Shown here: positions 34,390 to 50,784 of the stretch, piece after piece
How the letters are laid out: each line of letters opens with the position of its first letter
How positions within the stretch are numbered: position 1 is the first letter of the stretch
Notes under the pieces: model-generated
The model's database searches: none
Told to the model about the DNA's origin: nothing
The model's input: the letters and a program-made list of their open reading frames with translations, nothing else
Translations under genes and position numbers: made by a program
IMG/VR virus record: IMGVR_UViG_3300031857_000105
Span: 1 to 64,000 of that record
Length of the DNA stretch: 64,000 nucleotides
DNA from: a virus
Direction: 5' to 3' (one strand)

Positions 34390-34415
34390 TTTAAAACAAA
34401 TTGGAGAAAACATAA

Positions 34416-34769
34416 ATGGCAACAGGAATTTTATATACAGGTACACTAACCTCAACAACGGCAACGACTGCCTACGTAGTACCAAGCACAACTTATAGCG
34501 TAGTTAATGTAAGTTTTACAAACACAGGAACTTCAGCCGCTACTATTCGATTGTATATTGGTGCAAGTTTAGGAACAGCTGGTTCAGTAACAGGTAGTCT
34601 TGTACCAAGTGAAGCAATTGAATATGATACTACTATTGCTCCTAAGGGTGTTTTTGAAAGAACGGGCCTAGTCTTAAGTAGTGTTTCAGGTGCAAAGTAT
34701 ATTACAGTTTATGCATCAACTGGTAACGTAAACGTAAACATTTACGGCATTGAAACATCAACAGTTTAA
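34416..34769 (+). CDS. Small beta-rich fibre-associated protein (family A, copy 3)
   Basis: 117 aa; YVVP.....VVNVSFTN...IEYDT.I...GVFERTGLVL. Confidence 0.6.
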   Translation: MATGILYTGTLTSTTATTAYVVPSTTYSVVNVSFTNTGTSAATIRLYIGASLGTAGSVTGSLVPSEAIEYDTTIAPKGVFERTGLVLSSVSGAKYITVYASTGNVNVNIYGIETSTV

Positions 34770-34787
34770 CATACAAGAGAGATAATA

Positions 34788-35906
34788 ATGGCACGTTATA
34801 ATACAATTATTCCAACAGCGACAGCGGCATCGGCTACGTCTATTACTTCGCCAAATTCAGGAGCTTTGGTTTCATTTACAGGAACCACATATTCTGTAAG
34901 TATTGGTGATCCTGTTTTGTTTTCCGGCCTATCGCAAATTTTTTATAATGCTGCCAGCGGAACAATAACTTTAACTTTTACCAGTGTGGGAGCTGGAGTA
35001 TTTGTTGGCCCAGGGGCTAGCGGTACTACAAGCCAATTACTAACAACTGGTTCCACGGTTACACTTTACTCTGACGGAACTAACTGGGTAGTACTCGGCG
35101 CCAGTGGCGGCCCAATATCAGGAAGCACTGGTTCATTTAGCGGTAACGTTACACTTAGCGGTACAACACCAACATTAAACTTAAACAATACTGCACCAAC
35201 TATTGCAACTAACAACTCTGGAAGTACTGCAAGTTTATTTGATAGCAATGCTACAACGGTAAATGCCTTTGGTGCGGCAACAACAATAACTGTTGGTGCA
35301 ACTACAGGTACCTTAAACTTACGTAATACCACAATCACTGCCGCCAATGCTACTACTCTTAATTTAAACGGTACTAGTCCTAGTATAGTTACTAGCAGTA
35401 CTGGTACAGGAAGTGTGTTTAATACTAACATTGGAACAGGAAACTTATTCGGATCTGCTACAACGGTTAACCTTGGCACTGGTGGTACAACTATTACCAT
35501 AGGTGCTAGCAGTAGTGGTACAGCTACTATAAGATTAACAACGGCTAGTTCAACAACTAGTAACGGAGCATTAGTTGTTGCCGGCGGTGTTGGAGTTGCA
35601 GGACAAGTTACCTGTGCAACACTAGTTGAAACTTCAAGTATTGCATTTAAAGAAAATGTACAACCATTAACAAATGCGTTAGACGTAGTTATGCAATTAA
35701 TGGGTGTTACATATGATCGTAAAGACAATAAGCGTCACGAAGCTGGTTTAATTGCAGAAGAAGTATTTAAATTTGCTCCTGAATTAGTTAGTTTAGATGC
35801 CGATGGCAAACCATACGGTATTCAATACACTAAGTTAGGCGCATACTTAGTTGAATCAATTAAAGTTTTAAAACAAGAAATTGATTTTTTAAAGAATAAG
35901 GAATAA
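34788..35906 (+). CDS. Tail fibre with C-terminal intramolecular chaperone (Peptidase S74-like) domain
   Basis: GALVVAGGVGV; SSIAFKENVQPL..AL..V.QL.GVTY...GLIAEEV...PELV......I.Y..L...LVESIK.L signature. Confidence 0.85.
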   Translation: MARYNTIIPTATAASATSITSPNSGALVSFTGTTYSVSIGDPVLFSGLSQIFYNAASGTITLTFTSVGAGVFVGPGASGTTSQLLTTGSTVTLYSDGTNWVVLGASGGPISGSTGSFSGNVTLSGTTPTLNLNNTAPTIATNNSGSTASLFDSNATTVNAFGAATTITVGATTGTLNLRNTTITAANATTLNLNGTSPSIVTSSTGTGSVFNTNIGTGNLFGSATTVNLGTGGTTITIGASSSGTATIRLTTASSTTSNGALVVAGGVGVAGQVTCATLVETSSIAFKENVQPLTNALDVVMQLMGVTYDRKDNKRHEAGLIAEEVFKFAPELVSLDADGKPYGIQYTKLGAYLVESIKVLKQEIDFLKNKE

Positions 35907-35910
35907 AAAC

Positions 35911-36342
35911 ATGGCAAATTTACAAGCAACAGATGTCGGCGGTACACTAACCTCGCTAAGGTTAGAAAATACAACTACTGTTAGTAAAACTTTACAATTA
36001 GCCGATCGAGATAGAGTAGTATCGTGTAACAACACATCATCAATTACAATTACTGTACCAGCAGACGGCACTGTTGCCTTTCCGGTAGGGTCAGTTGTAT
36101 ATATTAATAAAGTAAACAATGGGGCTGTACAACTAGCAGCCGAAGGTGGTGTGTCATTATCACGAACTGGTACACTTGCTCTAAATGAAGAAATGTTTGT
36201 AAGAAAAAGAGCTGCCAATACTTGGATAGTAGTAGATTCTGCAACTGCACTTACTTACACCGGCGGTACAGTTTCACAAGCTGGATCATTTACTGTAAGA
36301 TCATTCACCTCTGCAGGTGCTAGTACATTTACTATATCATAA
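35911..36342 (+). CDS. Fibre-associated structural protein
   Basis: ITITVP....VAFPVG motif; C-term TGGTVSQAGSFTVRSFTS resembles the N-term module of 36362. Confidence 0.6.
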   Translation: MANLQATDVGGTLTSLRLENTTTVSKTLQLADRDRVVSCNNTSSITITVPADGTVAFPVGSVVYINKVNNGAVQLAAEGGVSLSRTGTLALNEEMFVRKRAANTWIVVDSATALTYTGGTVSQAGSFTVRSFTSAGASTFTIS

Positions 36343-36361
36343 TTAATTTCACGAGGTCAAC

Positions 36362-37360
36362 ATGCCAATAATTAAAAGTTTAAGAAAAAAACACAATCCA
36401 AAAGAAAATGAAAACGTTTCTTACTCGCCGCCTTTAAAGATAACAGGCGGCGACAAGGTTTATACTGCGGGCGGATATACAGTACACATGTTCTTAACGC
36501 CAGGGCCGCACCAATTAAAAATTGAACCAGTCAAAGATCTTCCAAAAGAAATGATGGGTTTAATTGTAGATAGAACTTTAGAAGTGTTAATGGTGGGCGC
36601 AGGTGGTGCAGGTGGCGGTTATTCCGGTGGTGGTGGTGGTGGCGAAGTATTATACATTAGTCGAAATGTAGGAACTGGAACATTCCCGTTAAACGTTGCT
36701 CCGGCTACTAGTGGAGATAACGGTGCGTGGTCTGCTGCCAAGTGCGGAACAGGTACAACTGGTTTTGGAGAAACTGCTAAAGGCGGTGGCTCAGGAAGAG
36801 CATCAGACGATAGTATTCCTGCGAACCCTTACACTCCCGTTGCTAACGGTGGCGCAGGATCTTCAAGAACTGCTGGATATTTTGGACAACAAGGAACTTC
36901 AGTAGGTACTGGTGTTACTAGACATGGCGGCTTTAGAGGCGGCCAAGAAAACAGCCCAGCTAACGATGCTCCTAACTATCCAGGTCACGGTGGTGGTGGT
37001 GCTGGACAAAGTATTACTGGCAATACAGGTGGTGGTGGTAACGGTGGTGCTGGCGGCAGCGGAGTTTCATATAGTCTAACAGGAACTGCATTATTCTGGG
37101 GCGGTGGCGGCGGCGGCCAAACATACTACGGAGGCCAAGGCGGTGCAGGTGGTGCAGGTGGTGGTGCTGCCGGATCAGGTGGTAACGGCGGTAACAGCGG
37201 CGGCTCTGGATTAAATCCAGGTGGCAGTACTAATGCTGCCAGCTCAGGTGCGAGCGGCGGTGCAAATACTGGTGGTGGTGGTGGCAGTGGAAACGGACAA
37301 AACGGCAGTACTGGCGGCGGTGGCGGCTCCGGTGTTGTTATAGTTAGATATCCAACATAA
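36362..37360 (+). CDS. Glycine-rich fibre-tip/receptor-binding-like protein
   Basis: TGG....GGYTVH.F, VGAGGAGG...GGGGGG, ANTGGGGG...GGSGVVIVRY motifs typical of phage Gly-rich domains. Confidence 0.75.
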   Translation: MPIIKSLRKKHNPKENENVSYSPPLKITGGDKVYTAGGYTVHMFLTPGPHQLKIEPVKDLPKEMMGLIVDRTLEVLMVGAGGAGGGYSGGGGGGEVLYISRNVGTGTFPLNVAPATSGDNGAWSAAKCGTGTTGFGETAKGGGSGRASDDSIPANPYTPVANGGAGSSRTAGYFGQQGTSVGTGVTRHGGFRGGQENSPANDAPNYPGHGGGGAGQSITGNTGGGGNGGAGGSGVSYSLTGTALFWGGGGGGQTYYGGQGGAGGAGGGAAGSGGNGGNSGGSGLNPGGSTNAASSGASGGANTGGGGGSGNGQNGSTGGGGGSGVVIVRYPT

Positions 37361-37366
37361 CCTGCT

Positions 37367-37774
37367 ATGCCCCTTTACAAGACTAACAAAGATATTTTCA
37401 AAGACTTTGGAGAAGAAGTCTTTGATTATCGATTCAATAAAGAAACTCGATATATTTTAAAAACCAAAGACTGGGATTATAAACGAGAATTAAAAGTCGA
37501 AGATGTTGAAATATGGGAAGTATTGTTTGAAGATAGTTGGGGATTAGGTGTATATGCGGCTTATGAACCTTACGCTGAATTTTACATGATAAAATATGCA
37601 GATAGCACAGGTAATCATGTGTACGACACACATTATGGCGCAGGCGCACAAAATAAAATTATGCAATTTATGGTTTCAAACAACATACCTTTTAATCTAC
37701 ACGATGTATATGTTGATGAAGATAAAACCTGGTTGTACTTTTCAGAATCTGAAAAGAAAATTATTATTACTTAA
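37367..37774 (+). CDS. Hypothetical protein (DWDY family), paralog of 38240-38584
   Basis: DWDY......DV.IWE.L......G.Y....PY.EFY motif shared with the minus-strand ORF. Confidence 0.7.
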   Translation: MPLYKTNKDIFKDFGEEVFDYRFNKETRYILKTKDWDYKRELKVEDVEIWEVLFEDSWGLGVYAAYEPYAEFYMIKYADSTGNHVYDTHYGAGAQNKIMQFMVSNNIPFNLHDVYVDEDKTWLYFSESEKKIIIT

Positions 37775-37798
37775 CATAGAATTTACGGAGTTTACAAA

Positions 37799-37984
37799 AT
37801 GAACGAATCATTATTAGATTTAAATGACACAGATTTAGTCAGCGGTTATAGAGAAAATGTAACAAAGTTTTTAGCAGAACAGTCTAAAGATATATCAGAA
37901 CAAAATATAGAAGAACGAGATAGATTAAATCTTCTTCTTAGTACGTATATGGCTGAAATAGTTAAAAGAAATATTGTACTATAA
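37799..37984 (+). CDS. Small hypothetical protein
   Basis: 61 aa, SD GGAG upstream. Confidence 0.5.
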   Translation: MNESLLDLNDTDLVSGYRENVTKFLAEQSKDISEQNIEERDRLNLLLSTYMAEIVKRNIVL

Positions 37985-38245
37985 ATGATGGAAGATAATA
38001 ATTTTTGTATTCCGTTGTTTGACAATGAAAAATTATTATCTCCAGCGTTTATTAAATCAAAAAGGTGGATTGTAAATACTTGCAAAGAAGAAATTTTAGC
38101 AAGCTCTAGCAAACACGTATGTTTTGAAAATCTTTTTCAAAAAAAGTTTAAAGCAGTTTTAACACCAAGTTGCTCCACCGGATGGCAGCAGATTGAATTT
38201 ACAAATCAAAAAGACAAGTCTATTTTTCTACTGACCTGGTTATAA
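37985..38245 (+). CDS. Small hypothetical protein
   Basis: 86 aa abutting previous ORF; ends with F......FLL.W motif common in small phage proteins. Confidence 0.5.
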   Translation: MMEDNNFCIPLFDNEKLLSPAFIKSKRWIVNTCKEEILASSSKHVCFENLFQKKFKAVLTPSCSTGWQQIEFTNQKDKSIFLLTWL

Positions 38246-38584
38246 ATTTATAGAGTTTATTGGTAAAACAATTTCGCACTGATCTAAATATCTTTTTAAT
38301 TCATCGTGCGAATTTAACCCATAAAAAGTTTTAAATCTTCTAGAGTCTACAAAATCATAGTAGACCAACAGATAGAATTCAACATACGGATTCCAAGAAG
38401 AATAAATTCCAATATTATATGGATCTGTATACAATTCCTCCCATATTTTTACATCGTCTATTGTAATTGATTGAGAATAGTCCCAATCAACAGTAATAAT
38501 TGGCGGCGAGTTGTTTTGTATACACAGATCACTAGTTGTTCCGTTATTTAGAAACAAGTGATCTTTTAATACTAGTCTATTCAT
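38240..38584 (-). CDS. Hypothetical protein (DWDY family), inverted paralog of 37367
   Basis: DWDYSQSITIDDVKIWEELY...GIYSSWNPYVEFY; start taken at ATG 38584 (track begins at 38602). Confidence 0.7.
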   Translation of the reverse strand: MNRLVLKDHLFLNNGTTSDLCIQNNSPPIITVDWDYSQSITIDDVKIWEELYTDPYNIGIYSSWNPYVEFYLLVYYDFVDSRRFKTFYGLNSHDELKRYLDQCEIVLPINSINL

Positions 38585-38605
38585 GATTAAAGATGCCCTC
38601 AAATG

Positions 38606-38618
38606 TATTTAATAAATA
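38606..38618. promoter_or_regulatory. Back-to-back divergent late promoter cores (TATTTA-A-TAAATA)
   Basis: TAAATA on minus strand at 38606-38611 and on plus strand at 38613-38618, between divergent ORFs. Confidence 0.55.
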
Positions 38619-38625
38619 TTTTCGT

Positions 38626-39249
38626 ATGCAAACTCCAAACAGAATACACTCATGGTTTTCAACTACTATATATTATGAAGAAATTCCAAATGAGCCACTA
38701 GTATTAAAATTAACTAGTAAGGCTCTGGAATTAAAAAAAATATACACTAGTAGTGCTACTGCTTGGCGATGCAGTACATTTAACACTTTAGATTTATACA
38801 ATTGGGAAACAGACCAAGATCCTAGTGTATTAGAATTGATAGAAAAGTGTGCTAGAAATGTAGGAGATTTTGCTCAATCTTTTTCTTCTGTCCCGCTAGA
38901 TAATTATGAATTAGCTTGTACAGGATTTTGGTTTAATGTTGCAGAACCCGGTGCATACCAAGAGTATCATCAACATGCTAGTAGTCATTTTAGCCTTTGC
39001 TACTACTTGAACGTGCCAAAAAAATCTGGAAATATTGTTTTTAAAAGTTTTGAGTCAATGTTTGACATGTGCCCGTTACCTATACCGGATCAGTACGTAA
39101 ATACAAATTCTTATAAAACAGTATCTTATACACCATCAGCGGGATCACTTTTAATTTTTAGATCAAATGTATTACATATGGTTGAACAAAATCTTAGCGA
39201 TGAGAATCGAATCAGCATTTCTATGAACTTTAATCTAATTAAAAAATGA
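38626..39249 (+). CDS. 2OG-Fe(II) oxygenase, TIGR02466-like (HxH)
   Basis: WFNV..PG.YQEYHQH..HFS..YY..VP...G.LLIF.S...H.V..N.S...RISISMN; probable start at 38626 (track gives 38593). Confidence 0.85.
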   Translation: MQTPNRIHSWFSTTIYYEEIPNEPLVLKLTSKALELKKIYTSSATAWRCSTFNTLDLYNWETDQDPSVLELIEKCARNVGDFAQSFSSVPLDNYELACTGFWFNVAEPGAYQEYHQHASSHFSLCYYLNVPKKSGNIVFKSFESMFDMCPLPIPDQYVNTNSYKTVSYTPSAGSLLIFRSNVLHMVEQNLSDENRISISMNFNLIKK

Positions 39250-39914
39250 TACATTTTCCTGCAATTTGCGTAGATAATTTTTACAGTGACCCGGATCGTA
39301 TTAGAGAATGGGCACTATCTCTTGACTATAGCCCAGCACCAAACGGAAACTGGCCTGGAAAGCGATCAGAAAAATTACACTTAGTTGATCCTAAATTTTT
39401 TCAAGATTTTTGTAGTAAGATATTTTCTTTGTATTTTGATATGGATAGCACTGATATAAAATGGGTAGTGCATACACAATTTCAGCTTATCGAACCGTAC
39501 GACCAAGATCCTAATTCAAAAAAAAATACTGGTTGGATACACTACGACGATGATACTATATTTGGTGGTCTTATATATTTAAATCCAGACATAGATACAA
39601 ATTGCGGAACGTCTGTATTTAGACAAGATAGAGAATCTATATCAAATGCTGATTTTAAAGAAGCAAAGCAAACTTTTTATATGTCAAAACGATATGCAAA
39701 TTACGAAAATGTATTAACTGAGCATAACAATAATTTTACAGAAACTATAGTTTTTAAAAATTTATACAATAGATTTATAAGTTTTGACGGCGAAACAGCG
39801 CACAAGGCAAATAGTTTTTTTACAGAAATTCCTAGACTGACTCAAGTGTTCTTCGTAGCTAAGTGTGACACTAATTCAACTTGGCCAATTGCTAGGCATC
39901 AGAGGTATCTTTAA
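39246..39914 (+). CDS. 2OG-Fe(II) oxygenase-like (DUF6445-like, HxD)
   Basis: VDNFY.DPD.IR...PG.RS, WIHYD, LIYLNP...GTS, NR...F.....H...RLTQVFF. Confidence 0.75.
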   Translation: MIHFPAICVDNFYSDPDRIREWALSLDYSPAPNGNWPGKRSEKLHLVDPKFFQDFCSKIFSLYFDMDSTDIKWVVHTQFQLIEPYDQDPNSKKNTGWIHYDDDTIFGGLIYLNPDIDTNCGTSVFRQDRESISNADFKEAKQTFYMSKRYANYENVLTEHNNNFTETIVFKNLYNRFISFDGETAHKANSFFTEIPRLTQVFFVAKCDTNSTWPIARHQRYL

Positions 39915-39915
39915 A

Positions 39916-40539
39916 ATGGATGTTATAATGGAATTCACTACTCCTGTTGGAATGTTTTATTCTAGCAAGGATCTGGGCCAGCGCACATATGATGAAGTTT
40001 TAAAAATCATAGACAATCAAAATGAAGATGTGTTTGTTTACCAAAATATTTCAAAAACTACACCAGACAATTTACATTTAAGACCAGAGTTTTCAGAATT
40101 TTTAAAATTTCTCGAAGATAAAACAAAAGCATTTTCTGAAGAAGTTTTAGGTGTTCGAATGACTGACTTATCCATAAGCGGCATGTGGAGTAACGTACAT
40201 ACTCCCGGTTCAAAACATCACAATCACCAGCATCCAAATTCTTTTATTTCAGGTGTGTATTATCCGGTTTGCCCTGACTGCGAAGATATTGGAAATATTA
40301 TTTTTGTAGATCCAAGGCAAGCAAAAAATATGGTCCAGGCAGATTTTTTTAAATCGTCTTGCATATCAAATAGAAATATTTGGGTAACTCCTGAGTCTGG
40401 ATTATTATTAATTTTTCCTAGCTGGCTTGAGCACGGAACTGATCCGTTTATAGCTAACCCGGAAGATAAACGAGTATCTATAAGTTTTAACTATCAACTA
40501 AAAAAATGTGATCAAAAAACAATGAGAATTTATGAATAG
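39916..40539 (+). CDS. 2OG-Fe(II) oxygenase, TIGR02466-like (HxH)
   Basis: MWSNV..PG..H..HQHPNSFISGVYY...F.DPR...LLIFPSWLEH...RVSISFN; probable start at 39916. Confidence 0.9.
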   Translation: MDVIMEFTTPVGMFYSSKDLGQRTYDEVLKIIDNQNEDVFVYQNISKTTPDNLHLRPEFSEFLKFLEDKTKAFSEEVLGVRMTDLSISGMWSNVHTPGSKHHNHQHPNSFISGVYYPVCPDCEDIGNIIFVDPRQAKNMVQADFFKSSCISNRNIWVTPESGLLLIFPSWLEHGTDPFIANPEDKRVSISFNYQLKKCDQKTMRIYE

Positions 40540-41158
40540 ACAACTAGTAATCCCAGCAGAAAATTCATTTATAGGATCTTGGTTCTTAGAAGATATGTCT
40601 TTGTGCGACGATATGATACATTACTTTGAAACTTCTCCAGATAAATTAGACGGAGTAGTATATAGAGACGGCCAGCTAATTGTTGACAAATCAGAAAAAG
40701 ACTCAAAAGATATAATGTTAGATTTTAAGGAAGAAATTACAAAACGATATGTTCGAGAACTGCAAAAAGTTTTAGAAATGTACAAAATAAAATATGTAAG
40801 ATCGGATAGTGTTGGAAAGTTTGGTATAGAATCTATAAATCTACAAAAATATGGGCCTAATGGCGGATACAAATTTTGGCATGCTGAACGAGCAGACGGC
40901 CATCCACCTAGTGTTTATAGACATTTAGTCTTTATGACATACTTGAATACAGTTAGTGACGAAGGCGAGACAGAATTTTTCTATCAAAAAGTTAAAGTAA
41001 AACCGCAGAAAGGGCTTACGCTAATTTGGCCATCTGACTGGACCCATACGCATAGGGGTATTCCTTCTATGACTCAAACCAAATATATTGCCACGGGCTG
41101 GTTTACTTTCTTAAATAGAACACCGGGTGAAGAAGTACAAGCAGATAAAAATATTTAA
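40532..41158 (+). CDS. 2OG-Fe(II) oxygenase, prolyl-4-hydroxylase-like (HxE)
   Basis: QKY.P.GGY..WHAE...R.LVFMTYLN....GETEF..Q...KP.KG...IWP.DWTHTHRG...KYIATGW. Confidence 0.9.
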   Translation: MNRQLVIPAENSFIGSWFLEDMSLCDDMIHYFETSPDKLDGVVYRDGQLIVDKSEKDSKDIMLDFKEEITKRYVRELQKVLEMYKIKYVRSDSVGKFGIESINLQKYGPNGGYKFWHAERADGHPPSVYRHLVFMTYLNTVSDEGETEFFYQKVKVKPQKGLTLIWPSDWTHTHRGIPSMTQTKYIATGWFTFLNRTPGEEVQADKNI

Positions 41159-41169
41159 AGGGAAAAAAT

Positions 41170-41799
41170 ATGGCGAATATGGTTAATGGATTGTTTACTG
41201 GGGAGATTCAACCCTCATCGACAATTTGCGGTTGTATAGCCATATACAAAAATTTATGGCCTAACCCCGATGCAACTGTTGATTTAGTTAATTATCAGTG
41301 TAACGGTTTTGAAGGAGAAGTATTTTATGAGAGAGCAGGTACTGTAGGGTTAGGCGAAAATCAAAGACACAGGACTAACAAAGTGTTGTCTCTTACTAAC
41401 CGAGCAAACTTTAGTGATAATAAAGCACTACAAAGTGTACATAACCAATTTTATATGATGTTATTAGCCACAACAATTCCCTACGCTAGAAAATTTAATA
41501 TTCATGAAGGCTTGTGGCACGAGTCATACAGCATGTTGAGATATGATGTAGGCGAAGAATATAAAGTTCATTATGATTCTTCAAGTAGTATGGGCAGAGT
41601 AATATCAGCAATATGTTATCTTAACGATGATTTTGAAGGTGGCGAATTAGAATTTCCTTACTTTGGTGTTAAAATTAAACCAGAGAAAGGAATGTTAGTA
41701 TTATTTCCATCTAATTTTGCTTATGCACATATATCAAATCCTATTATAACAGGTTCTAAATACGCTCTAGTTACATGGATTAAAGATCGAGAATTGTAA
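41170..41799 (+). CDS. 2OG-Fe(II) oxygenase, prolyl-4-hydroxylase-like (HxD)
   Basis: LRY..G..Y..HYD....R.IS...YLNDDFEGGEL.F...FPSNF.Y.H...P...G.KY..VTW. Confidence 0.9.
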   Translation: MANMVNGLFTGEIQPSSTICGCIAIYKNLWPNPDATVDLVNYQCNGFEGEVFYERAGTVGLGENQRHRTNKVLSLTNRANFSDNKALQSVHNQFYMMLLATTIPYARKFNIHEGLWHESYSMLRYDVGEEYKVHYDSSSSMGRVISAICYLNDDFEGGELEFPYFGVKIKPEKGMLVLFPSNFAYAHISNPIITGSKYALVTWIKDREL

Positions 41800-41816
41800 A
41801 CTAACAGGAATTAAAT

Positions 41817-42371
41817 ATGGAACATGATTGGATAGTTTGTGACACACTGTATGATCTAGCAGATTGTATAGAAATAAAAAAAACGTGTGTAAAAAACATT
41901 GATGAGAACATTATCGACGGGCCAGCGCACAATACCGTTAAGACATCTGAAGTTAAATTACTAAATTATAGACATGTTAAAGATGCCTTAGAACCTGCTC
42001 ACGAATTTGTGTTGCATATTAATAAAAATTATTTTGGATTAGATATCCATAATGTATGTGACGGAGATGTAGTATTACTTAACACATACGATTCAAAAAA
42101 TAAAGCATCGTACGAATGGCATAAAGATGTAGCGTCCACTACCCAATTGTTTGATTTTAAATTAACAATGTTAATAAATTTATCAGATGGAAATTACGAA
42201 GGTGGAAATTTGCAAATTTTTACCACTGGTGGCGAACAAACAATAGACAGTTTTAAGCAACCCGGAGCCGTGTGCATTATTCCTTCATGGGTTCCTCACC
42301 GAGTAACTAATGTTACTAGCGGAGTAAGAACTACACTTTCTTATTTTTATACTGGACCCAAAATTAGATGA
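41817..42371 (+). CDS. 2OG-Fe(II) oxygenase, PKHD/YbiX-like (HxD)
   Basis: YEWHKD...KLT..INLS...YEGG.L...G....PS.VPHRVT.VTSG.R. Confidence 0.9.
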   Translation: MEHDWIVCDTLYDLADCIEIKKTCVKNIDENIIDGPAHNTVKTSEVKLLNYRHVKDALEPAHEFVLHINKNYFGLDIHNVCDGDVVLLNTYDSKNKASYEWHKDVASTTQLFDFKLTMLINLSDGNYEGGNLQIFTTGGEQTIDSFKQPGAVCIIPSWVPHRVTNVTSGVRTTLSYFYTGPKIR

Positions 42372-42952
42372 TACAAGATAATAATCATGTAAAACTCTTT
42401 TATAGTTTTCTTGACGAAACTACGTTAGATATTAATGTAAACGATTTAGCTGACTATTGCTATTTTGTTAAAAATAATGATGGTGGCAAAGTGTTGAGCA
42501 ATGTTGGAGGGTGGCAAAGTAGTAATTTAGACGTCACAATACCAGAACTTAGACCTCTAATTACCTGTGTTTTAGAAAGAGCCGAAAGCCTAATCTTAGA
42601 ATACGACTTACCTAGAACTTTTAAAATTGATCCAATTTGGATTAACATTAACGAGAAGTATCACTACAATATGATCCATGAGCATCCGAGGAGTCTGCTA
42701 GCAGGTGTGTTTTACGTAAAGGCACCAAAGGATAGTGGAGATTTAGTTTTTGTAAATCCTATTACAACTATGCAACACTATATTGATCAAACACGGATAG
42801 AAAAATATAATCCATTCAACTCTTATAGTTGGGCAATAGAACCAGCTGACAATACACTAGTAATGTTTCCTTCCTGGGTGCCACACTTTACTCTTCCAAA
42901 TTCTTCAAACGAAGACAGAATCTCAATTGCATTTAACATAAGTGAACGCTAG
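42368..42952 (+). CDS. 2OG-Fe(II) oxygenase, TIGR02466-like (HxH)
   Basis: SNVGGWQS, WININ....N..HEHP.S.L.GVFYVK.P..SG...MFPSW..H....N.S.EDRISIAFN. Confidence 0.9.
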   Translation: MIQDNNHVKLFYSFLDETTLDINVNDLADYCYFVKNNDGGKVLSNVGGWQSSNLDVTIPELRPLITCVLERAESLILEYDLPRTFKIDPIWININEKYHYNMIHEHPRSLLAGVFYVKAPKDSGDLVFVNPITTMQHYIDQTRIEKYNPFNSYSWAIEPADNTLVMFPSWVPHFTLPNSSNEDRISIAFNISER

Positions 42953-42953
42953 T

Positions 42954-43718
42954 ATGTTTGATATTTTTATTAAAAAAAGCGAAGTTATTTTAGATTGTTT
43001 CACAAATGTGGGAACAGTATATGATACCGCTAAAATTAATAATGCTGTACATTTTATACCAGACTGGTGGAAAAATACACCTAAAGTACAAGAAGGGTGG
43101 GCTACTATTAAAAATTGCAAAGCCTTTAAAGATTACTATAAACATGGTATTGTGATCCCTTCTTGGTTTGAAATGGAAATTAGCTTCTTTGGTGAAGATG
43201 GTCCGGACGGAAAAGAAATAGGAATAAAATATTCAAACGACAATGTGGATATAACTAAATCACATAATCATTATCAGTTTGATAAGTTTACTCAACACGA
43301 TGGAAAAAATCTAAAGATAATGTCCCCGTGGGCCTTTAGAACTAAAGAAGATATAAAATTTGTATGGAGTCATCCTGCTTGGAATACTAGAGAGTCTATG
43401 TCCTATCTATCAGCCCTTCCAGGAGTAATAGATTTTAAATATCAGCACCATGTTGCTATTAATTTTTTAATGATTCAGCCAATTGAACCTTTATCAATAA
43501 CTGTTGAACCATTAGAACCTTTAGTAATGTTACACCCTATGACTGAAAAACGTGTTGTAATAAAAAATCATTTGATTTCTGATAATGAATACAAACGATT
43601 ATTTGCTATTCAAGATCTAGTTTTAAAAAGAGATGTCGATGACGAAATTAAAGAATATGATAAGAAAAAATCGCTTACAAAAAAAATAGAGAAAATGTCC
43701 TGTCCTTTTAAATACTAA
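42954..43718 (+). CDS. Hypothetical protein embedded in the oxygenase array (not an oxygenase; possible dUTPase-like fold)
   Basis: P.WWK..P....TIKNC..F.DY...G..IP.W...K..SPW.F.T...LPGVIDF...EPL..L.P; no HxD/E..H triad; C-terminal CPF. Confidence 0.6.
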   Translation: MFDIFIKKSEVILDCFTNVGTVYDTAKINNAVHFIPDWWKNTPKVQEGWATIKNCKAFKDYYKHGIVIPSWFEMEISFFGEDGPDGKEIGIKYSNDNVDITKSHNHYQFDKFTQHDGKNLKIMSPWAFRTKEDIKFVWSHPAWNTRESMSYLSALPGVIDFKYQHHVAINFLMIQPIEPLSITVEPLEPLVMLHPMTEKRVVIKNHLISDNEYKRLFAIQDLVLKRDVDDEIKEYDKKKSLTKKIEKMSCPFKY

Positions 43719-43719
43719 T

Positions 43720-44352
43720 ATGAGTACTATACCTAACTATCAATTTGAAAACTTTATTGGCATTTTTGACAATGTCATTGATGATAACGATTGTCAACGC
43801 ATAATTGAACACTTTGAATTAGTGCAGTCCTCAAAGTTAAGTATGTCTAGACAACAGATAAATCCTCAAATTAAAAAAAGCCAAAAAGATACAGACAACT
43901 ATTTTTTATCTGGTACTTCTGGATTTGCTAACCCGCAAGTTGAAGATATAATTTCTTCAGCAGACAGTTGGATATTTGAAAATTTAAAAACAGCAGTTTG
44001 GTCTTGTTATAATTTGTATGCAGATAAATTTGGGGTGTTTAACGACTTGGGAAAACATGCAATTTCAGGTTCGATTAAAATACAAAAAACTGAAAAAAGC
44101 CAAGGGTATCACGTGTGGCATTGTGAAAACGATTGTATAAAAACAGGTAACAGAATTGCCTTGGTTATTTTATATCTTAATGATTTAGATGAAGGCGGAG
44201 AAACAGAATTTTTATATCAGTCTTTAAGGATTGCTCCGCGTAAGGGCAGAATGATAATATGCCCTTCAGATTGGACTCATACCCACAGGGGAAATCCTCC
44301 TCTTAAAGATGAAAAATATATAATTACTACATGGATTGAATTTATAGAATGA
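43720..44352 (+). CDS. 2OG-Fe(II) oxygenase, prolyl-4-hydroxylase-like (HxE), paralog of 40532
   Basis: IQKT....GYHVWHCE...R......YLND..EGGETEFLYQ..R..P..G...I.P.DWTHTHRGNPP...KYI.T.W. Confidence 0.9.
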   Translation: MSTIPNYQFENFIGIFDNVIDDNDCQRIIEHFELVQSSKLSMSRQQINPQIKKSQKDTDNYFLSGTSGFANPQVEDIISSADSWIFENLKTAVWSCYNLYADKFGVFNDLGKHAISGSIKIQKTEKSQGYHVWHCENDCIKTGNRIALVILYLNDLDEGGETEFLYQSLRIAPRKGRMIICPSDWTHTHRGNPPLKDEKYIITTWIEFIE

Positions 44353-44924
44353 AAGATTTTTTAGAAATCAAAGAAGCTACACCAAGAGATAAATTTAATA
44401 AAATACAAGATTTTATTTTATCAGATTCTTTTCCGTGGTTTTATACTGGCACAACAATAAACAATTCATCAGCTGAAACTAACTTTAGTTTTTTTCATAG
44501 TGCATTTCATTACGAAGATGGCTATTCGTTTATAGGAAAAGACCTTGCTGAATTAGTTACAGAATGTATGGCTACAACTGACGTTAAAATTAATTCTCTT
44601 TTAAGATTACGATTAGGACTTATAACTAGTACACCAAGTCAAGTAGTACACACTCCACACATAGATTTTTCATTCCCTCATTATACAGGTTTACTATATC
44701 TTAACAACACAGATGGTGAAACTTTTTTGTATGATGAAAAATACGATACTAATCTAGATAAAAAAAATTATGATAATTTTGTAAGATCTAAAAAAAATAC
44801 AATCTTAACAAAAACAAACCCGGAAGAAAACAAAATATTTGTATTTGACGGATTATATTATCACGCCAGTTCTAGCCCTAGTAGTCATGATCGAAGAGTA
44901 GTTCTTACATTTAACTATGTCTAA
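44349..44924 (+). CDS. 2OG-Fe(II) oxygenase-like (FPWFY family, HxD)
   Basis: FPWFY...LR.RLGL...PHIDF..PH...L.YLNN.DG.T...P.EN....FDG..YHAS..P....R.V..FN. Confidence 0.8.
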   Translation: MKDFLEIKEATPRDKFNKIQDFILSDSFPWFYTGTTINNSSAETNFSFFHSAFHYEDGYSFIGKDLAELVTECMATTDVKINSLLRLRLGLITSTPSQVVHTPHIDFSFPHYTGLLYLNNTDGETFLYDEKYDTNLDKKNYDNFVRSKKNTILTKTNPEENKIFVFDGLYYHASSSPSSHDRRVVLTFNYV

Positions 44925-45450
44925 TACTATTATAGAAAACAGTTTGGTTTTAACTACGGATCAAAAAAACTATATTGATAAAAATATTTTATCTAATAAT
45001 ATTCCTTGGTTTTTTAGTGAAGATTCTGTATATGCAGATCAAAAAAATTACTTTTCACATGTGCTAATTCATAGGATAGAAGATAAAAAAAATTTAGAAA
45101 TTAATTCTCCTCACACACTTTTTTTTGTAGAAATCTTAAAAAAAATCTGCATAGACAACGATGTTACATGTTCTGAAATTCTTAGGGCATCTCTAAACAC
45201 AACATTTGCAAATAATGATACAACTGGAACAGTACACGTAGATCATGAATTTGATCACATGAATTGCATAGTATATTTGTCGTCCGTCGACAATGCAGGA
45301 ACACTTATTTTTGAAAATGATCAAAAAACTATAGCATACAAATCTAATTGTATCAAGTACAGTTATTTGTTGTTTCCAGGATTATATCACGCTCAATTAT
45401 TCCCGCCGCCGGGTACAAGAAGAACAGTTTTTGTAGCAACTTTTAAATAA
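44917..45450 (+). CDS. 2OG-Fe(II) oxygenase-like (FPWFY family, HxD), paralog of 44349
   Basis: IPWFF...ILRASLN....HVDH...H....VYL.....GT.IF....F.G.YHA...P....R.V.V. Confidence 0.75.
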   Translation: MSNTIIENSLVLTTDQKNYIDKNILSNNIPWFFSEDSVYADQKNYFSHVLIHRIEDKKNLEINSPHTLFFVEILKKICIDNDVTCSEILRASLNTTFANNDTTGTVHVDHEFDHMNCIVYLSSVDNAGTLIFENDQKTIAYKSNCIKYSYLLFPGLYHAQLFPPPGTRRTVFVATFK

Positions 45451-45456
45451 TTGGTA

Positions 45457-45906
45457 TTATATTAAATCGACTATATCAAATACAGTTTGTAATTTAGTAC
45501 GAATTGTTTTGTTTGAAAAACTATTACGAAGCCCCTGGTGTAAGGGCTTTGGTGCGTAATCAATAGTTGACCATGCCCAAGCACAATGCTCATCACTTAG
45601 TACAGGAATAAATTCATCTTGTATTACACACAAATATGTGTGAAAATTAAAAACTTTGTCGTTACTAACAAATGTTTCTAACGGAATTGTTTTGATTATT
45701 ACTGGCGAAAATCCTATTTCTTCTTGAACTTCACGCTGTAAACCTTGCCACGGATTTTCGTGTTGTAAGTTTGTCCCCCCAACAAGTCCCCAAGTGCCTG
45801 TATGTTTGCCTTGAGATTTTTGTAACATTAAAAATCTCCGTGTTGATTTAGCGTAGAATAATGCTCCGCTACAAACAATTTTATCTGTTAAAGATCTAGT
45901 CTCCAT
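45457..45906 (-). CDS. Nudix hydrolase
   Basis: Complete Nudix box G-TNLQH-E-NPWQGLQ-REVQEEIGF. Confidence 0.9.
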   Translation of the reverse strand: METRSLTDKIVCSGALFYAKSTRRFLMLQKSQGKHTGTWGLVGGTNLQHENPWQGLQREVQEEIGFSPVIIKTIPLETFVSNDKVFNFHTYLCVIQDEFIPVLSDEHCAWAWSTIDYAPKPLHQGLRNSFSNKTIRTKLQTVFDIVDLI

Positions 45907-47363
45907 GCACCTGCCTTATATTCACCTTCAAACGATTTGGCCCAAAATACGCCATTCCATACATACTGTACTCCTGTATATATATTCGTTTGCCAGATCA
46001 TAGTGTCAGGTTCTTGAGCAGAATCAAATATTACATTCCAAGCCGTTCCAGACCACTCGATAATATCATTAGCTCGAGCAATAAAATCAGCACCCAGTGT
46101 GGATTTCCAAGCATCTGGTCCGTCATCATTAATTTCAGATCCGATGTCTTCGATGATTAAAAATCTATCACCTGCATTAACGTCTTGCATACCGTGTCCT
46201 GGATATACTTTTTGTGGATCAATAATAGCATCAAATTTTCCTCGAGCAGTTGCTTGATTAAATCCCATATCGCCTAACATATATCCGTTAGAGTCGATGA
46301 GCATGTCTTGTGGACGGGTGTCGGTGTCCCACGAAACTGTTAATATTGTTGGATCTAACGGACTAATAGCAACAGTACCAACTACTTCTGTGCCGTTAGG
46401 TTGAACAAGATACAAACTACTAGACCCTGCTGTATATTTTCCAGGATACTGGTCAAATACTGCTTGCCATTCAATTGGAGTTCCTTGACGTACTGGAATA
46501 TCTAATGTGGGTTCACGTGGAATACTACTTTCAGATTTTTGTAATAGTATTGCTTGATTGTTATATACTTGAATATTGTAGTCTGTAATAGTTACAACAT
46601 CGCGAGTAAGCAGTTGACCCATAGTAACTTCAGCACCAGCAAGCGGTTGTCCTAGACCTTCTATGTAAGTATTCTTATCTATAGTTGCGCCGTCATAAAG
46701 ACTAGTAATAATTTTAGTAATAACACCAAGATGTTTAACTTTAACTGGTGGACTGATCCAAATTGGAGTATCGAAATTCAATGACGCGATATCGATAGGA
46801 CTGTCGTTTCCAATAGGAACTGTACGGCTTGACCAATTAACTTGTCCTAAATTTAAAATAGTAAGACTAGTCCAGTCAATATAATTGTCTGTTGTTTGTA
46901 ATTCTAAACTTGGATTAAACAGTACTAGAATTTGCTCCATTAATTGTAATTTTTGCTCAGTGTTTGCAGTCCATATATCACATTTTAAAGACAACTTAAA
47001 TGGAGTTGGCATTAAACGTTCTACAGTATAGTTACGCCCTTGCCCAGTAGTGTATACAGGATTGTCAGGATCTGCATTATTAATTTCGCGCTCACGCACA
47101 TGAACTTTTCCAACATAGCTAGGGTCTCCTAGTCTATTTCTATCTAATTCTAATCCGCTAATGTAAACACTCATACGTGGAACACTATTGATTTTGTTTT
47201 CACTGTTTTGACGAATAATACTAGCAGCTTGTCTGTCAGCATCTCCGTACATAACTGGTACACGTACTAATGTACCGTCACCGTATCGTACTGTAAAGTT
47301 ACTTAATACACGAATAGTCTGTGTAATATAACGTCTAATTTGTCCGTCATAAAAATGTTGCAT
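45888..47363 (-). CDS. gp15: Tail sheath stabiliser/terminator protein with C-terminal extension
   Basis: FYD.QIRRY...F...VP..YG...PRMS.....L..D..R...P.PF.L......W......QL.EQIL..FNP motifs. Confidence 0.8.
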   Translation of the reverse strand: MQHFYDGQIRRYITQTIRVLSNFTVRYGDGTLVRVPVMYGDADRQAASIIRQNSENKINSVPRMSVYISGLELDRNRLGDPSYVGKVHVREREINNADPDNPVYTTGQGRNYTVERLMPTPFKLSLKCDIWTANTEQKLQLMEQILVLFNPSLELQTTDNYIDWTSLTILNLGQVNWSSRTVPIGNDSPIDIASLNFDTPIWISPPVKVKHLGVITKIITSLYDGATIDKNTYIEGLGQPLAGAEVTMGQLLTRDVVTITDYNIQVYNNQAILLQKSESSIPREPTLDIPVRQGTPIEWQAVFDQYPGKYTAGSSSLYLVQPNGTEVVGTVAISPLDPTILTVSWDTDTRPQDMLIDSNGYMLGDMGFNQATARGKFDAIIDPQKVYPGHGMQDVNAGDRFLIIEDIGSEINDDGPDAWKSTLGADFIARANDIIEWSGTAWNVIFDSAQEPDTMIWQTNIYTGVQYVWNGVFWAKSFEGEYKAGAWRLDL

Positions 47364-48940
47364 TATAAATCTGCCTTTGGTCTAAGAGCTTTTGATAAAC
47401 TTTGTCGTTGTGCTTCTCTGTTGTTGCATAGACTTAGTTTCCATAATCCGTCATATGGTAAAAATTCTGAAGCTGTTCCTGTATTATTAATATTACCAGA
47501 ATTTGTAGCAACAAAAGTAGTTCCTACAGTATTAGAAGTTGCACCAAGCAATGTGAAATCTGTATTTCCTAAACTTGTAATTTTATAAGATTTTCCAACT
47601 GTAAAATAACCATCAGAAAATTCTGGAAGTGTAATTCTTACTTTACCAGCATTGTTGGAAATGATACCACTATTTTCTTCAACTACGTATACTATTTCTA
47701 CTGTTTCTAATTTAAAGACAACATATAATGATTCTTGATAATCAATAGGTGTATCGAACACATAGTTGTAATTTACTGGAATAGATGTTGCTGGCGGAAT
47801 AATTGGAGGAGGAAGCTTCAGCCAATCGATTCCAACTGCTTCGTTATAGATATAAGTTGTGTTATTGATAAATCCTGTAGTATGTGTTTGACGAGTATCG
47901 TTGTTAGTCATATTCATACGTACTGCATCTTCTACTTTAATCCAACGTGCTCCGTCAAAGCGGAATAGTCTATTGGGCATAAAATCTGTACGCAAAAAGA
48001 AATCATCTGGGCCTGCTGTTTCTGGAAACTGAATACCGTGTCCAAAGTCGTATCCGTTTTGCGGAAATCCATCGCCAACTAAAAATCCTGTATAACCAGT
48101 TCTAACAGGTCGTTTATTAGACTCTAATGCAGTGATTGAAGTTATACTTGCGTCGAGTGTGTCAGTATCAGAAGTATTAAGAGTAGTTTTACCTTGCTCA
48201 TCCACGGCTAACGTATAAAACTGACGAGTTTCGTAACCGCTTTTTGGAGAGTCTGCTTCTGCTTGTAGTATTACAGCATCGTTGATTTGTAGTTCAGCAC
48301 CACGAGTACTTAAAATATCACGTAGTGTTTTATCAATAGGATTGCCGTTGGCATCAATTGCTGGTTTATCAAGGATGTCAGCAAATTGTTGAGCATCTGT
48401 AATCTTTTTAAGACGCAATCTATACAAGTGTGGATACCAAGTCGCACTAAAACCTTCGCTAGCACGACCCACATCTTCAATAACATAATATCGTGGCAGG
48501 CCAATTTCGTATTCGTTTAACGCAAAATTATCACGTAAATGTGGTAATTCTAACACGTCACCACTTAGGGGTTTTCTGCCAATGTAATTAACAAAATCGT
48601 TAATATGAACAGTCATGTAAATTGTGTCATTGTCAATAAACAGACCAAACTGGCTTAGGTTAAAGTCAATGTTTTGTACATTGTAAATACCGCGAATTCT
48701 GTAAATTTCTTCGCTGTATTTCCTATCGCGATTTTCTAAAAATAACAAATCTTGAATATTTGTTTCTTTCACAGCATCGTATATAGGCTGATCTGCGGTA
48801 CCTTCTGTGGCTATTTTAGGGCCTAGGTACTTGTGCAAGTACACATCCGTGCCGCCAACCTGAAACATCTCAGAAATTTGACGATCCATGAACTTGTAAT
48901 CTTGCCCTCTTTCGGGTTTGTATAATGATAAACGTGGCAT
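47363..48940 (-). CDS. gp14: Neck protein gp14-like with C-terminal extension
   Basis: G.DVY..KY, LSQFGL....D.....H..F......P..GD.LELP; synteny with gp13/gp15. Confidence 0.7.
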   Translation of the reverse strand: MPRLSLYKPERGQDYKFMDRQISEMFQVGGTDVYLHKYLGPKIATEGTADQPIYDAVKETNIQDLLFLENRDRKYSEEIYRIRGIYNVQNIDFNLSQFGLFIDNDTIYMTVHINDFVNYIGRKPLSGDVLELPHLRDNFALNEYEIGLPRYYVIEDVGRASEGFSATWYPHLYRLRLKKITDAQQFADILDKPAIDANGNPIDKTLRDILSTRGAELQINDAVILQAEADSPKSGYETRQFYTLAVDEQGKTTLNTSDTDTLDASITSITALESNKRPVRTGYTGFLVGDGFPQNGYDFGHGIQFPETAGPDDFFLRTDFMPNRLFRFDGARWIKVEDAVRMNMTNNDTRQTHTTGFINNTTYIYNEAVGIDWLKLPPPIIPPATSIPVNYNYVFDTPIDYQESLYVVFKLETVEIVYVVEENSGIISNNAGKVRITLPEFSDGYFTVGKSYKITSLGNTDFTLLGATSNTVGTTFVATNSGNINNTGTASEFLPYDGLWKLSLCNNREAQRQSLSKALRPKADL

Positions 48941-49835: not shown

Positions 49836-50534
49836 ATGATTATTGGCGTATGCGGTTTTATTGGTTCTGGCAAAGATACTATTGCCGATTACTTAACTAA
49901 CTTCCATGAATTCCGACGAGAATCATTCGCCAATACCCTTAAAGATGCCGTAGCTAACGTGTTTGGTTGGGACAGAACAATGTTAGAAGGTCGTACAAAA
50001 CAAGCTCGTGAATGGCGCGAACAAGTAGATCCGTGGTGGGCAGAACGTTTGAACATGCCTAATTTGACTCCTCGTTGGGTGCTACAATATTGGGGCACTG
50101 AAGTTTGCCGAAGAGGATTCCATGATGATATTTGGATTGCAAGTCTAGAAAATAAACTCCGCAACAGTCGAGATGATGTAGTAATATCAGATTGTCGTTT
50201 TCCTAACGAAATTAAGTCAATTAAAGACGCAGGCGGAATTGTAGTACGTGTTGTCCGTGGCGAAGAACCTGAATGGTACGAAGATGCTATCAATGCTAAC
50301 CGAGGAGAAAACGGTAATTTTTCATGGTCTACAAGCCGTAGCAGACTTGAAAAACTAGGCATCCATGCTAGTGAAACAGCATGGGTAGGAACTAAGTTTG
50401 ACGCTGTGCTAGATAACAATGGCAGTATTGACGACCTGTTTGCCCAAGTTAGAGGTCTGGTACAAGATCACCTTGCTTCCACTTCACACCCTCACGGTGA
50501 AGCAGTCTTTGACAATTTGAACATACCGTCTTGA
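49836..50534 (+). CDS. gp1: Deoxynucleoside monophosphate kinase
   Basis: IIG.CG.IGSGKDT P-loop; FA..LKD; TPR..LQ..GTE..R; VISDCRF.NE; H.SE; NNGSIDDL. Confidence 0.9.
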   Translation: MIIGVCGFIGSGKDTIADYLTNFHEFRRESFANTLKDAVANVFGWDRTMLEGRTKQAREWREQVDPWWAERLNMPNLTPRWVLQYWGTEVCRRGFHDDIWIASLENKLRNSRDDVVISDCRFPNEIKSIKDAGGIVVRVVRGEEPEWYEDAINANRGENGNFSWSTSRSRLEKLGIHASETAWVGTKFDAVLDNNGSIDDLFAQVRGLVQDHLASTSHPHGEAVFDNLNIPS

Positions 50535-50784
50535 GATTAGTGTGTCGGCAGTTGTTTAGATCGCCGTCCACATGAAACACATTAAACACCTCTGAGTAAA
50601 GGCTTTTAAACCCACACTTATCGCAGGTGTTTTTCATTTTATAGCCAGCACGATGCCATCGTGCAATTCCAGCATATTTGCCACCTTTAAGGCAAGCCTC
50701 ACATAATTTTCTATAGTAGGTTCTACCGTTTTTAACATAGTTAACGGCAGCTGGTCTATATCCACACGAACATAATGGTCTCAT
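50449..50784 (-). CDS. HNH-like zinc-finger protein
   Basis: C..CGF...VFHVDG..NN....NL.TVC.NC; extra N-terminal CSC..CEAC; TAAATA 4 nt upstream on minus strand. Confidence 0.7.
   Translation of the reverse strand: MRPLCSCGYRPAAVNYVKNGRTYYRKLCEACLKGGKYAGIARWHRAGYKMKNTCDKCGFKSLYSEVFNVFHVDGDLNNCRHTNLKTVCSNCQRLLHREGVKWKQGDLVPDL

Follow-up and report, generated by a model that had tools for sequence, protein, structure and literature searches.

A Syn9-type array of ten predicted Fe(II)/2-oxoglutarate dioxygenases behind the tail-fibre genes of a freshwater jumbo myovirus

Organization and family membership of the array

The IMG/VR fragment IMGVR_UViG_3300031857_000105 is a viral record of 76.8 kb, and its positions 1–64,000 form the stretch analysed here (the window). 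Behind the tail-fibre genes of this window lies a run of eleven plus-strand open reading frames (ORFs), extending from 38593/38626 to 45450, in which successive ORFs overlap or are separated by gaps of no more than 18 nt. We numbered these genes O1–O11 in order; ten are predicted Fe(II)/2-oxoglutarate (2OG) dioxygenases and O8 is the sole non-oxygenase. A preliminary description of this DNA had reported ten co-oriented, tightly packed oxygenases of at least five subfamilies. The ten genes were recovered and fall into six families, but the run is not one of ten, as an eleventh gene inside it, O8 (42954–43718), had been overlooked. We consider it very likely that the array comprises ten stand-alone Fe(II)/2OG dioxygenases, all intact and drawn from six families, plus one dUTPase-fold protein, and that it is a Syn9-type cluster carried by a freshwater jumbo myovirus.

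Eight of the ten oxygenases exceeded curated Pfam cut-offs in the HMMER searches that had been proposed as a check, and three of these also exceeded that of TIGR02466. O1 (38626–39249, with an HxH…H…R motif), O3 (39916–40539) and O7 (42368–42952) belong to the PF13759/TIGR02466 group (PF13759, 75–82 bits; TIGR02466, 74–102 bits, cut-off 62.5), for which we found no functional data in the literature. O2 (39246–39914, HxD…H…R) is a dioxygenase-like protein of the Syn9-gp52 family and matches DUF6445 (42.5 bits, cut-off 24). Four proteins match PF13640 (39–58 bits, cut-off 27), namely the prolyl 4-hydroxylase (P4H)-like O4 (40532–41158, HxE), O5 (41170–41799, HxD) and O9 (43720–44352, HxE), together with O6 (41817–42371). 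O6 had been described as PKHD-like; it is indeed a PF13640 oxygenase, but its similarity to the PKHD-type model is weak (37 bits, cut-off 143). For O10 (44349–44924) and O11 (44917–45450, 27 % identical to O10), all Pfam matches, including those to PF13640 and PF13759, were below threshold; both match phrog_274 (E values 1e-34 and 3e-24), the family of Syn9 gp51 and gp53.

The metal triad and the distal Arg or Lys that the preliminary description had read in all ten enzymes are legible in every translation (10/10), as HxH, HxE or HxD followed by a distal His and an Arg/Lys. When 16 O10/O11 family members, taken from the window and from related loci, were aligned, H104, D106, H172 and R183 proved invariant. 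O10 was modelled with AlphaFold (predicted local distance difference test (pLDDT) score of 90), and the model returned at least 500 Foldseek matches at E<1e-3; those listed were all 2OG oxygenases, among them PolD, SnoN, PHD2, P4H, HygX and WelO5. O10, the one oxygenase for which a fold was modelled, is thus predicted to adopt the double-stranded beta-helix fold of 2OG oxygenases. Judged from their sequences, all ten enzymes belong to the Fe(II)/2OG dioxygenase superfamily, with catalysis predicted.

The nearest solved structures of O1 (3bvc and 2rg4) are both uncharacterised, and a sequence search yielded no solved relative for the DUF6445 protein O2. O5 and O9 are closest to the Bacillus anthracis P4H (E values 2e-9 and 4e-11, respectively). 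No array protein gave a JmjC or Cupin_8 match at E≤0.1. The highest pairwise identity among the array oxygenases is 41 %, indicating that they are not recent duplicates. As had been noted from the letters of the sequence, the array is also AT-richer than its surroundings, with a GC content of 0.30–0.35 compared with 0.38–0.44 in the flanking structural genes.

Several public annotations of these families differ from the assignments given here. Many cyanophage records, and PHROGs itself, name phrog_274 'denV / DNA endonuclease V', which looks like an inherited misannotation of a family with a predicted 2OG-oxygenase fold and an invariant HxD…H…R signature. Proteins annotated as 'minor coat protein' (phrog_1644, Syn9 gp52) belong to the DUF6445 dioxygenase-like family, and the 'ferrochelatase' phrog_3531 matches P4H-like members. 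A twelfth oxygenase gene of the record (PF13759, 67.5 bits; G000:C1:71156-71782, equivalent to L089:1195-1821) lies beyond the window, ~26 kb downstream of the array and in another gene neighbourhood.

O8, a companion protein with a dUTPase-like fold

O8 (start at 42942 or 42954, end at 43718, plus strand) belongs to the family of Syn9 gp43. Its sole match is phrog_7084; no Pfam or NCBIfam family and no dUTPase model matched. A structural model built with 29 homologues (pLDDT 89) suggests a dUTPase/dCTP-deaminase-like fold. VIA-align superposed it on dUTPase 6kz6 with a Z score of 9.3 (root-mean-square deviation 3.1 Å, 130 residues), and the top 22 rows were all dUTPase or dCTP deaminase, with unrelated rows at Z≤4.1; agreement by Foldseek was weak (E value 2e-4). 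On the strength of this predicted fold, we rejected O8 as an eleventh oxygenase. Its neighbours in the Atlas carry DUF6065. Of 66 related loci of the O8 family (L177–L242), 44 have Oxy_5 genes and 32 have P4H-like genes no more than 10 kb away. The O8-type protein is a regular companion of oxygenase arrays.

Late-type elements

The TAAATA element reported 7 nt ahead of the array is present (38611–38616, plus strand, with the O1 ATG at 38626 and no Shine–Dalgarno sequence) and resembles a late promoter. A second element (43709–43714, plus strand) lies 5 nt before the ATG of O9 at 43720. In the window as a whole, TAAATA occurs within 14 nt of the start codon in 6 of 51 genes, compared with 0.99 expected from shuffled upstream regions (maximum of 5 in 2000 shuffles). 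Among the six genes concerned (38626, 43720, 47363(−), 50449(−), 54967 and 58879) are those for a neck/virion protein and the terminase. The corresponding elements (38611, 43709, 48946(−), 50793(−), 54956 and 58868) are positioned 4–7 nt ahead of the starts, and five of the six lack a Shine–Dalgarno sequence, which points to late mRNAs that are leaderless or nearly so. The enrichment exists only in coincidence with true starts, as a count of TAAATAN5ATG across the window, regardless of genes, shows no enrichment (4 occurrences, 2.3 expected).

A similar arrangement is found in Syn9, where ATAAATA followed by an AGGAG Shine–Dalgarno sequence precedes gp40, the head of the gap-free gp40–gp54 run, and 25 of 60 related loci have the ATAAATA heptamer at a matching position (~9 expected). 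Scans of 36000–47500 for sigma-70 promoters (57 sites, 48 ± 8 expected) and terminators (2, compared with 5.9 expected) were uninformative. Taken as sequence signals, the TAAATA-type elements support late transcription of the array.

The carrier phage

The array had been placed in the context of T4-like cyanophages, a framing that the virion genes do not bear out. The major capsid protein shares 68–71 % identity with its counterparts in the jumbo phages Phosso, Vibrio 2.275.O, Serratia BF and CBB, and the tail sheath is 40–43 % identical to those of Atu_ph07, Phosso and PA5oct. As both proteins are closest to those of jumbo phages, the carrier is, on protein similarity, assigned to the freshwater jumbo myoviruses of the Phosso/CBB/Serratia BF type rather than to the T4-like cyanophages. 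CheckV estimated that the 76.8-kb record covers 21 % of the genome. The host is probably not a cyanobacterium; psbA is absent from five large relatives, which is a weak hint only, as all five are fragments.

Relatives of the gp15-like gene are found in more than 596 IMG/VR contigs, and lake and freshwater metagenomes of 13 studies contain parts of the stretch, with no RNA run among those listed. Three lake metagenome runs carry identical pieces of the array, and a fourth study contains collinear contigs of ~95 % identity spanning 38235–45693, from which we conclude that the array is not an assembly artefact. A megablast search of the region against 50,697 phage records returned zero matches, and distant blastn detected only short stretches (150–230 nt) of single cyanophage or pelagiphage oxygenase genes.

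Comparison with known oxygenase clusters

The array is not novel as a type. Iyer, Abhiman, de Souza and Aravind (NAR 2010, PMC2938197) described "10 tandem dioxygenases" of "at least five distinct families" together with Trp halogenases in Syn9, and proposed that the cluster serves secondary-metabolite synthesis. The order of genes in Syn9 is fibres (gp32–34), Gly_rich_2 proteins (gp38–39), gp40, halogenases (gp41–42), an O8-like protein (gp43, E value 2e-6) and dioxygenases (gp45–54). Using BLASTP and hidden Markov models (HMMs), we matched O1, O3 and O7 to gp48, gp45 and gp60 (gp48 being nearest to O1), O2 to gp52 (34 % identity), O4 and O9 to gp50 (38 and 36 % identity, respectively), O8 to gp43, and O10 and O11 to gp53 and gp51; O5 and O6 have no direct Syn9 match. 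Six families of the array have counterparts in Syn9. In both phages, ten dioxygenases with little mutual similarity, representing at least five families, stand in tandem behind glycine-rich fibre genes, with a late-type element at the head of the cluster. They differ in that the window's phage is a jumbo myovirus with no PF04820 halogenase in its 76.8-kb record and no counterpart of the JmjC/MINA member gp49, carries O8 in the middle of the array rather than at its head, and has four small ORFs, one of them antisense, between fibres and array. A second example of the cluster type is provided by the cyanomyovirus S-CREM1, whose layout resembles that of Syn9, with a 'collagen-like' Gly-rich protein (ORF67), a halogenase (ORF69), an O8-like protein annotated as 'triphosphate nucleotidohydrolase' (ORF70) and nine tandem oxygenases (ORF72–80). 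The cluster type has thus been known since the 2010 description of Syn9, and the version in the window lacks the flavin halogenases that most relatives carry.

Three further systems invite comparison. The S-SSM6a-type cyanophage cluster combines carbamoyltransferases, a halogenase, 2OGFeDO and cupin enzymes, for which capsule decoration or a metabolite has been proposed (Iyer et al., Viruses 2021, PMC7824862). These enzyme classes recur in relatives of the window's phage (14 of 36 loci have halogenases, and G004 has a carbamoyltransferase), whereas the window itself has oxygenases without a carbamoyltransferase, methylase, phosphatase or halogenase. The similarity to P4Hs (O5 and O9 to the solved 3itq/5hv0, E values 2e-9 to 4e-11, and weakly to PBCV-1 5c5t) is confined to the C-terminal catalytic half, and two of the three P4H-like members (O4 and O9) have HxE in place of HxD. 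Finally, cyanomyovirus 2OG-Fe(II) oxygenases have been treated as auxiliary metabolic genes (1–5 per genome; Sullivan 2010, PMC3037559), and published copy numbers reach 10 in S-CREM1 and 24 in S-SCSM1. They share Pfam subfamilies and low mutual identity (0–44 %) with the array, but the window's genes are gathered in one block and their carrier is no cyanophage, and the cyanomyovirus papers adopt a metabolic reading in which a link to fibre tips is not remarked upon.

Association with the fibre block

The array had been described as adjacent to the fibre genes. The S74 fibre gene (34788–35906) and a gene for a Gly-rich fibre protein (36362–37360, plus strand, 30 % Gly) do lie upstream, but four small ORFs, one on the minus strand (38240–38584), intervene. 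The Gly-rich gene is the last large fibre gene before the island and ends 1.3 kb from the array; its product is a candidate receptor-binding tip. Its repeat (36600–37300) varies in length between lake metagenomes, with many contigs skipping 130–620 nt or replacing short stretches. Two of the small ORFs (37367–37774, plus strand, and 38240–38584, minus strand) form an inverted pair of DWDY-family paralogues without a family match, of which the second stands start to start with O1. DWDY homologues flank oxygenase/halogenase islands in many relatives of the jumbo lineage (e.g. L184, L186, L188 and L190–L193), and the inverted pair could act as anchors for island inversion or exchange. Syn9 gp40 was considered as a DWDY homologue and rejected. 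On its other side, the island is bounded by a conserved neck module comprising a NUDIX hydrolase and a gp15-like tail-completion gene (45457–47363, minus strand).

In related phages the tube, sheath, deoxynucleoside monophosphate (dNMP) kinase, adaptor/virion protein, gp15 and NUDIX genes form a conserved module, and the region past NUDIX is variable. Genes of ~500 residues in this region are PF04820 tryptophan-type halogenases (E values 1e-86 to 1e-106). Among the 36 loci with more than 5 kb past NUDIX, 18 carry oxygenases (1–8 recognisable in each) and 18 carry neither oxygenases nor halogenases; one to four halogenases are present in 14 of the 18 loci with oxygenases and in none of the 18 without. 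Three extended relatives (G002, G003 and G004) each run from giant fibre proteins through a small fibre gene, an S74-like gene and additional fibre genes to the island, which is followed by NUDIX and gp15; the island measures ~14.5 kb in G002, and that of G004 has the added carbamoyltransferase.

The connection to fibre genes is stronger than had been supposed, as Gly_rich_2 genes precede the arrays of Syn9 and S-CREM1 as well as those of most loci recovered through a Gly-rich protein. The Gly-rich proteins of G002, S-CREM1 and Syn9 (gp38/39) pass the PF21722 threshold; those of G002 are 46 % identical to S-CREM1 ORF67, and the window's Gly-rich protein aligns with the PF21722-positive proteins of the jumbo relative G002 and with ORF67 at 28 %. 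Scanning IMG/VR with an alignment of Gly-rich proteins gave 75 viral loci, 70 of which have halogenase, O8-like, Oxy_5 and phrog_274 genes 1–3 kb downstream of the Gly-rich gene. The usual order is halogenase(s), O8-like gene and oxygenases, on the same strand as the Gly-rich gene, with the unit inverted in the jumbo lineage. In the reverse direction, the Gly-rich HMM matched in 1 of 66 loci of the O8 family; direct phmmer with the window's Gly-rich protein found weak homologues in the jumbo lineage, which indicates that the HMM is insensitive. Glycine-rich domains form the receptor-binding tips of Pam3 gp24 and S16 gp38 (PMC9608196). As a profile of the Gly-rich proteins matched no solved structure by sequence, the link to these tips rests on Pfam PF21722 and the literature.

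Comparison of individual relatives points to the unit of inheritance. Relative to the window, L177 has fibre genes of 83–93 % identity, a DWDY pair of 82–91 % and O1–O10 in the same order at 75–94 %, with just 43 % identity in gp15 and 40 % in the neighbouring virion protein. L007 and L010 show the opposite pattern; gp15 (86–89 %), the adaptor (94–96 %) and the tail tube (96 %) are closely related to those of the window, whereas the fibres are only 38–50 % identical and the islands entirely different. A sharp mosaic boundary is consequently seen between array/NUDIX and gp15 (33000–47400 compared with L177 and with L007/L010), the combined fibre and array block being ~85 % identical in L177. 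We conclude from this contrast that the array moves together with the fibres and not with the neck, the breakpoint being the array/NUDIX junction. Among 46 genome pairs, no pair with gp15 identity of at least 76 % has array genes in common.

Possible function of the array

Ever since cyanophage genomes were first sequenced, the role of the many 2OG oxygenases in aquatic phages has been a question; the proposals in print are DNA repair, nitrogen signalling and the production of secondary metabolites, and we know of no experimental examination of any of these proposals. The reading that we favour, with a probability of roughly 40 %, is that the array tailors virion proteins; it is plausible, and expression time, substrate and reaction are all inferred, from a basis of observed gene content, catalytic residues, fold, synteny, mosaic inheritance and motif enrichment. 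The block, at the far end of the tail-fibre module and behind the gene for the glycine-rich fibre tip, would be transcribed late from TAAATA-type elements resembling those of the structural genes. Its soluble products would be cytoplasmic and would modify freshly synthesised phage proteins before or during assembly, with the fibre or adhesin proteins as the most probable targets. Each paralogue would use O2 and 2OG to hydroxylate or oxidise a distinct side chain or site, yielding succinate and CO2, and the repertoire would be exchanged together with the fibre genes, such that the chemistry remains matched to the receptor-binding proteins. The P4H-like members appear, by sequence, to be nearest to peptidyl-prolyl hydroxylases, which we count in favour of this reading. 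The virion-tailoring interpretation of the preliminary description is partly supported. Its extension, in which the arrays and the halogenases of relatives would constitute an exchangeable toolkit that chemically edits the phage's own fibre receptor-binding tips, including glycine-rich adhesins, we regard as rather unlikely.

A number of observations weigh against virion tailoring. The window's Gly-rich protein scores under the threshold of PF21722 Gly_rich_2 (E value 0.059), and no window protein contains collagen-like G-X-Y repeats with proline; Pro-rich windows are absent from the fibre genes, with short Pro-rich tracts only in distant genes at 47363, 58382 and 60428, so the neighbourhood offers no substrate of the kind expected in a collagen-type P4H setting. 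In G003 the island is present and the Gly-rich gene is absent, C1q-like fibre paralogues being found instead, and the orientation of the island flips among relatives. The 70 loci with Gly-rich genes are not independent, because many of the contigs are related, and correspond roughly to two lineages with several architectures each. The proposal that array content co-varies with the fibre genes fared unevenly; it agrees with the contrast between L177 and L007/L010, but the correlation across the 46 genome pairs was not significant and was under-powered (rho 0.23, p 0.13), and L184, L186 and L188 share 22–40 % of the array genes despite fibres of only 47–50 % identity. Physical adjacency alone could yield the co-inheritance seen in L177. 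Position alone may mean no more than that late operons end in a hotspot for cargo genes, and in the Sinorhizobium phage Phosso, a cultured jumbo relative (L091, 263617–288990), the slot between the gp15-like and tail-fibre genes is occupied by an NAD+ salvage set (NadE, nicotinate phosphoribosyltransferase, NMNAT and MutT), indicating that it behaves also as a general cargo site.

The halogenases and carbamoyltransferase of relatives are typical of small-molecule pathways, and fit equally well with the published reading of the Syn9 and S-SSM6a clusters (PMC2938197, PMC7824862), in which the enzymes would act on a free amino acid or on an amino-acid- or sugar-derived metabolite in the infected cell, oxidising it and, in relatives, also halogenating or carbamoylating it. 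We regard this as a serious rival, though somewhat less probable than virion tailoring. The restriction of halogenases to loci with oxygenases speaks for it, as do the small-molecule enzymes PolD, SnoN and HygX among the best structural neighbours of O10 and the halogenase, TonB-receptor and non-ribosomal peptide synthetase (NRPS) genes that adjoin bacterial homologues of Syn9 gp52 (PMC2938197). The window, though, has neither a halogenase nor a scaffold-building enzyme, ten hydroxylases would be excessive for one small molecule, the late-type elements and tight fibre-tip linkage would have no obvious reason, and a product has never been detected. The Phosso cargo also raises the idea that the genes share no function and that the fibre/neck slot is a recombination hotspot gathering unrelated accessory genes from the aquatic phage pool. 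The 18 of 36 relatives without oxygenases in the slot, the GC content of the array below that of its flanks, the variable content and orientation of the island and the inverted DWDY paralogues at its flanks would all be expected of such a site. We nevertheless consider this very improbable, given that halogenase, O8-like, Oxy_5 and phrog_274 genes recur in similar order in two distant myovirus lineages, that catalytic residues are kept in all ten enzymes and that the array is ~95 % identical across lakes.

Bacterial YcfD and PPHD are hydroxylases of ribosomal proteins and EF-Tu, and translation-machinery hydroxylases of this kind occur among the P4H-/PKHD-like families. The array might likewise modify host proteins (ribosomal proteins, EF-Tu) or the envelope, reprogramming the cell or blocking superinfection. 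This appears improbable, as take-over and exclusion functions are usually early and the array elements resemble those of structural genes, the array proteins have no signal peptide or membrane segment evident by inspection, and a link to any host gene was not found; the fast turnover of the repertoire would, on the other hand, suit an arms-race function, and a 2OG gene was mutated in an S-TIM4 evolution experiment during adaptation to sub-optimal hosts (PMC6224464). Least probable of all, and in our view only a slight chance, is a role in nucleic-acid or nucleotide chemistry (AlkB- or TET/JBP-like repair or base modification) or in bulk conversion of 2OG to succinate that would manipulate host nitrogen signalling. 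A DNA-repair role was proposed by Weigele (2007) and a 2OG/NtcA role by Sullivan (2010, PMC3037559), and the dUTPase-like fold of O8 and the adjacent NUDIX gene are compatible with such chemistry. No array protein, however, reached a Tet_JBP or AlkB threshold (the best was O5 against Tet_JBP, 16.5 bits with a cut-off of 34.9, and there were no AlkB matches), O8 matches no dUTPase family, bulk turnover of 2OG needs no ten diverged paralogues, and the host is probably not a cyanobacterium.

Whichever explanation holds, an array of the Syn9 type exists also in abundant freshwater jumbo phages that are not cyanophages, can occur without halogenases, and follows the receptor-binding fibre block, not the neck module, in its inheritance. 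If virion tailoring is correct, the array would provide the first case of a phage adhesin edited oxidatively after translation; if it is not, the metabolite reading would be favoured. Should the enzymes indeed form a toolkit for fibre tips, a swap of fibre plus enzymes would alter host recognition not by sequence alone but also by post-translational chemistry, a layer of phage–host adaptation that is, to our knowledge, undescribed for any tailed phage.

Other genes in the window

Elsewhere in the window, a small opposite-strand gene (50449–50784, minus strand) lies between the dNMP kinase and the tail sheath. It is present only in some relatives (L042, L055, L057 and L183–L185), a distribution typical of a mobile insertion of the homing-endonuclease type.

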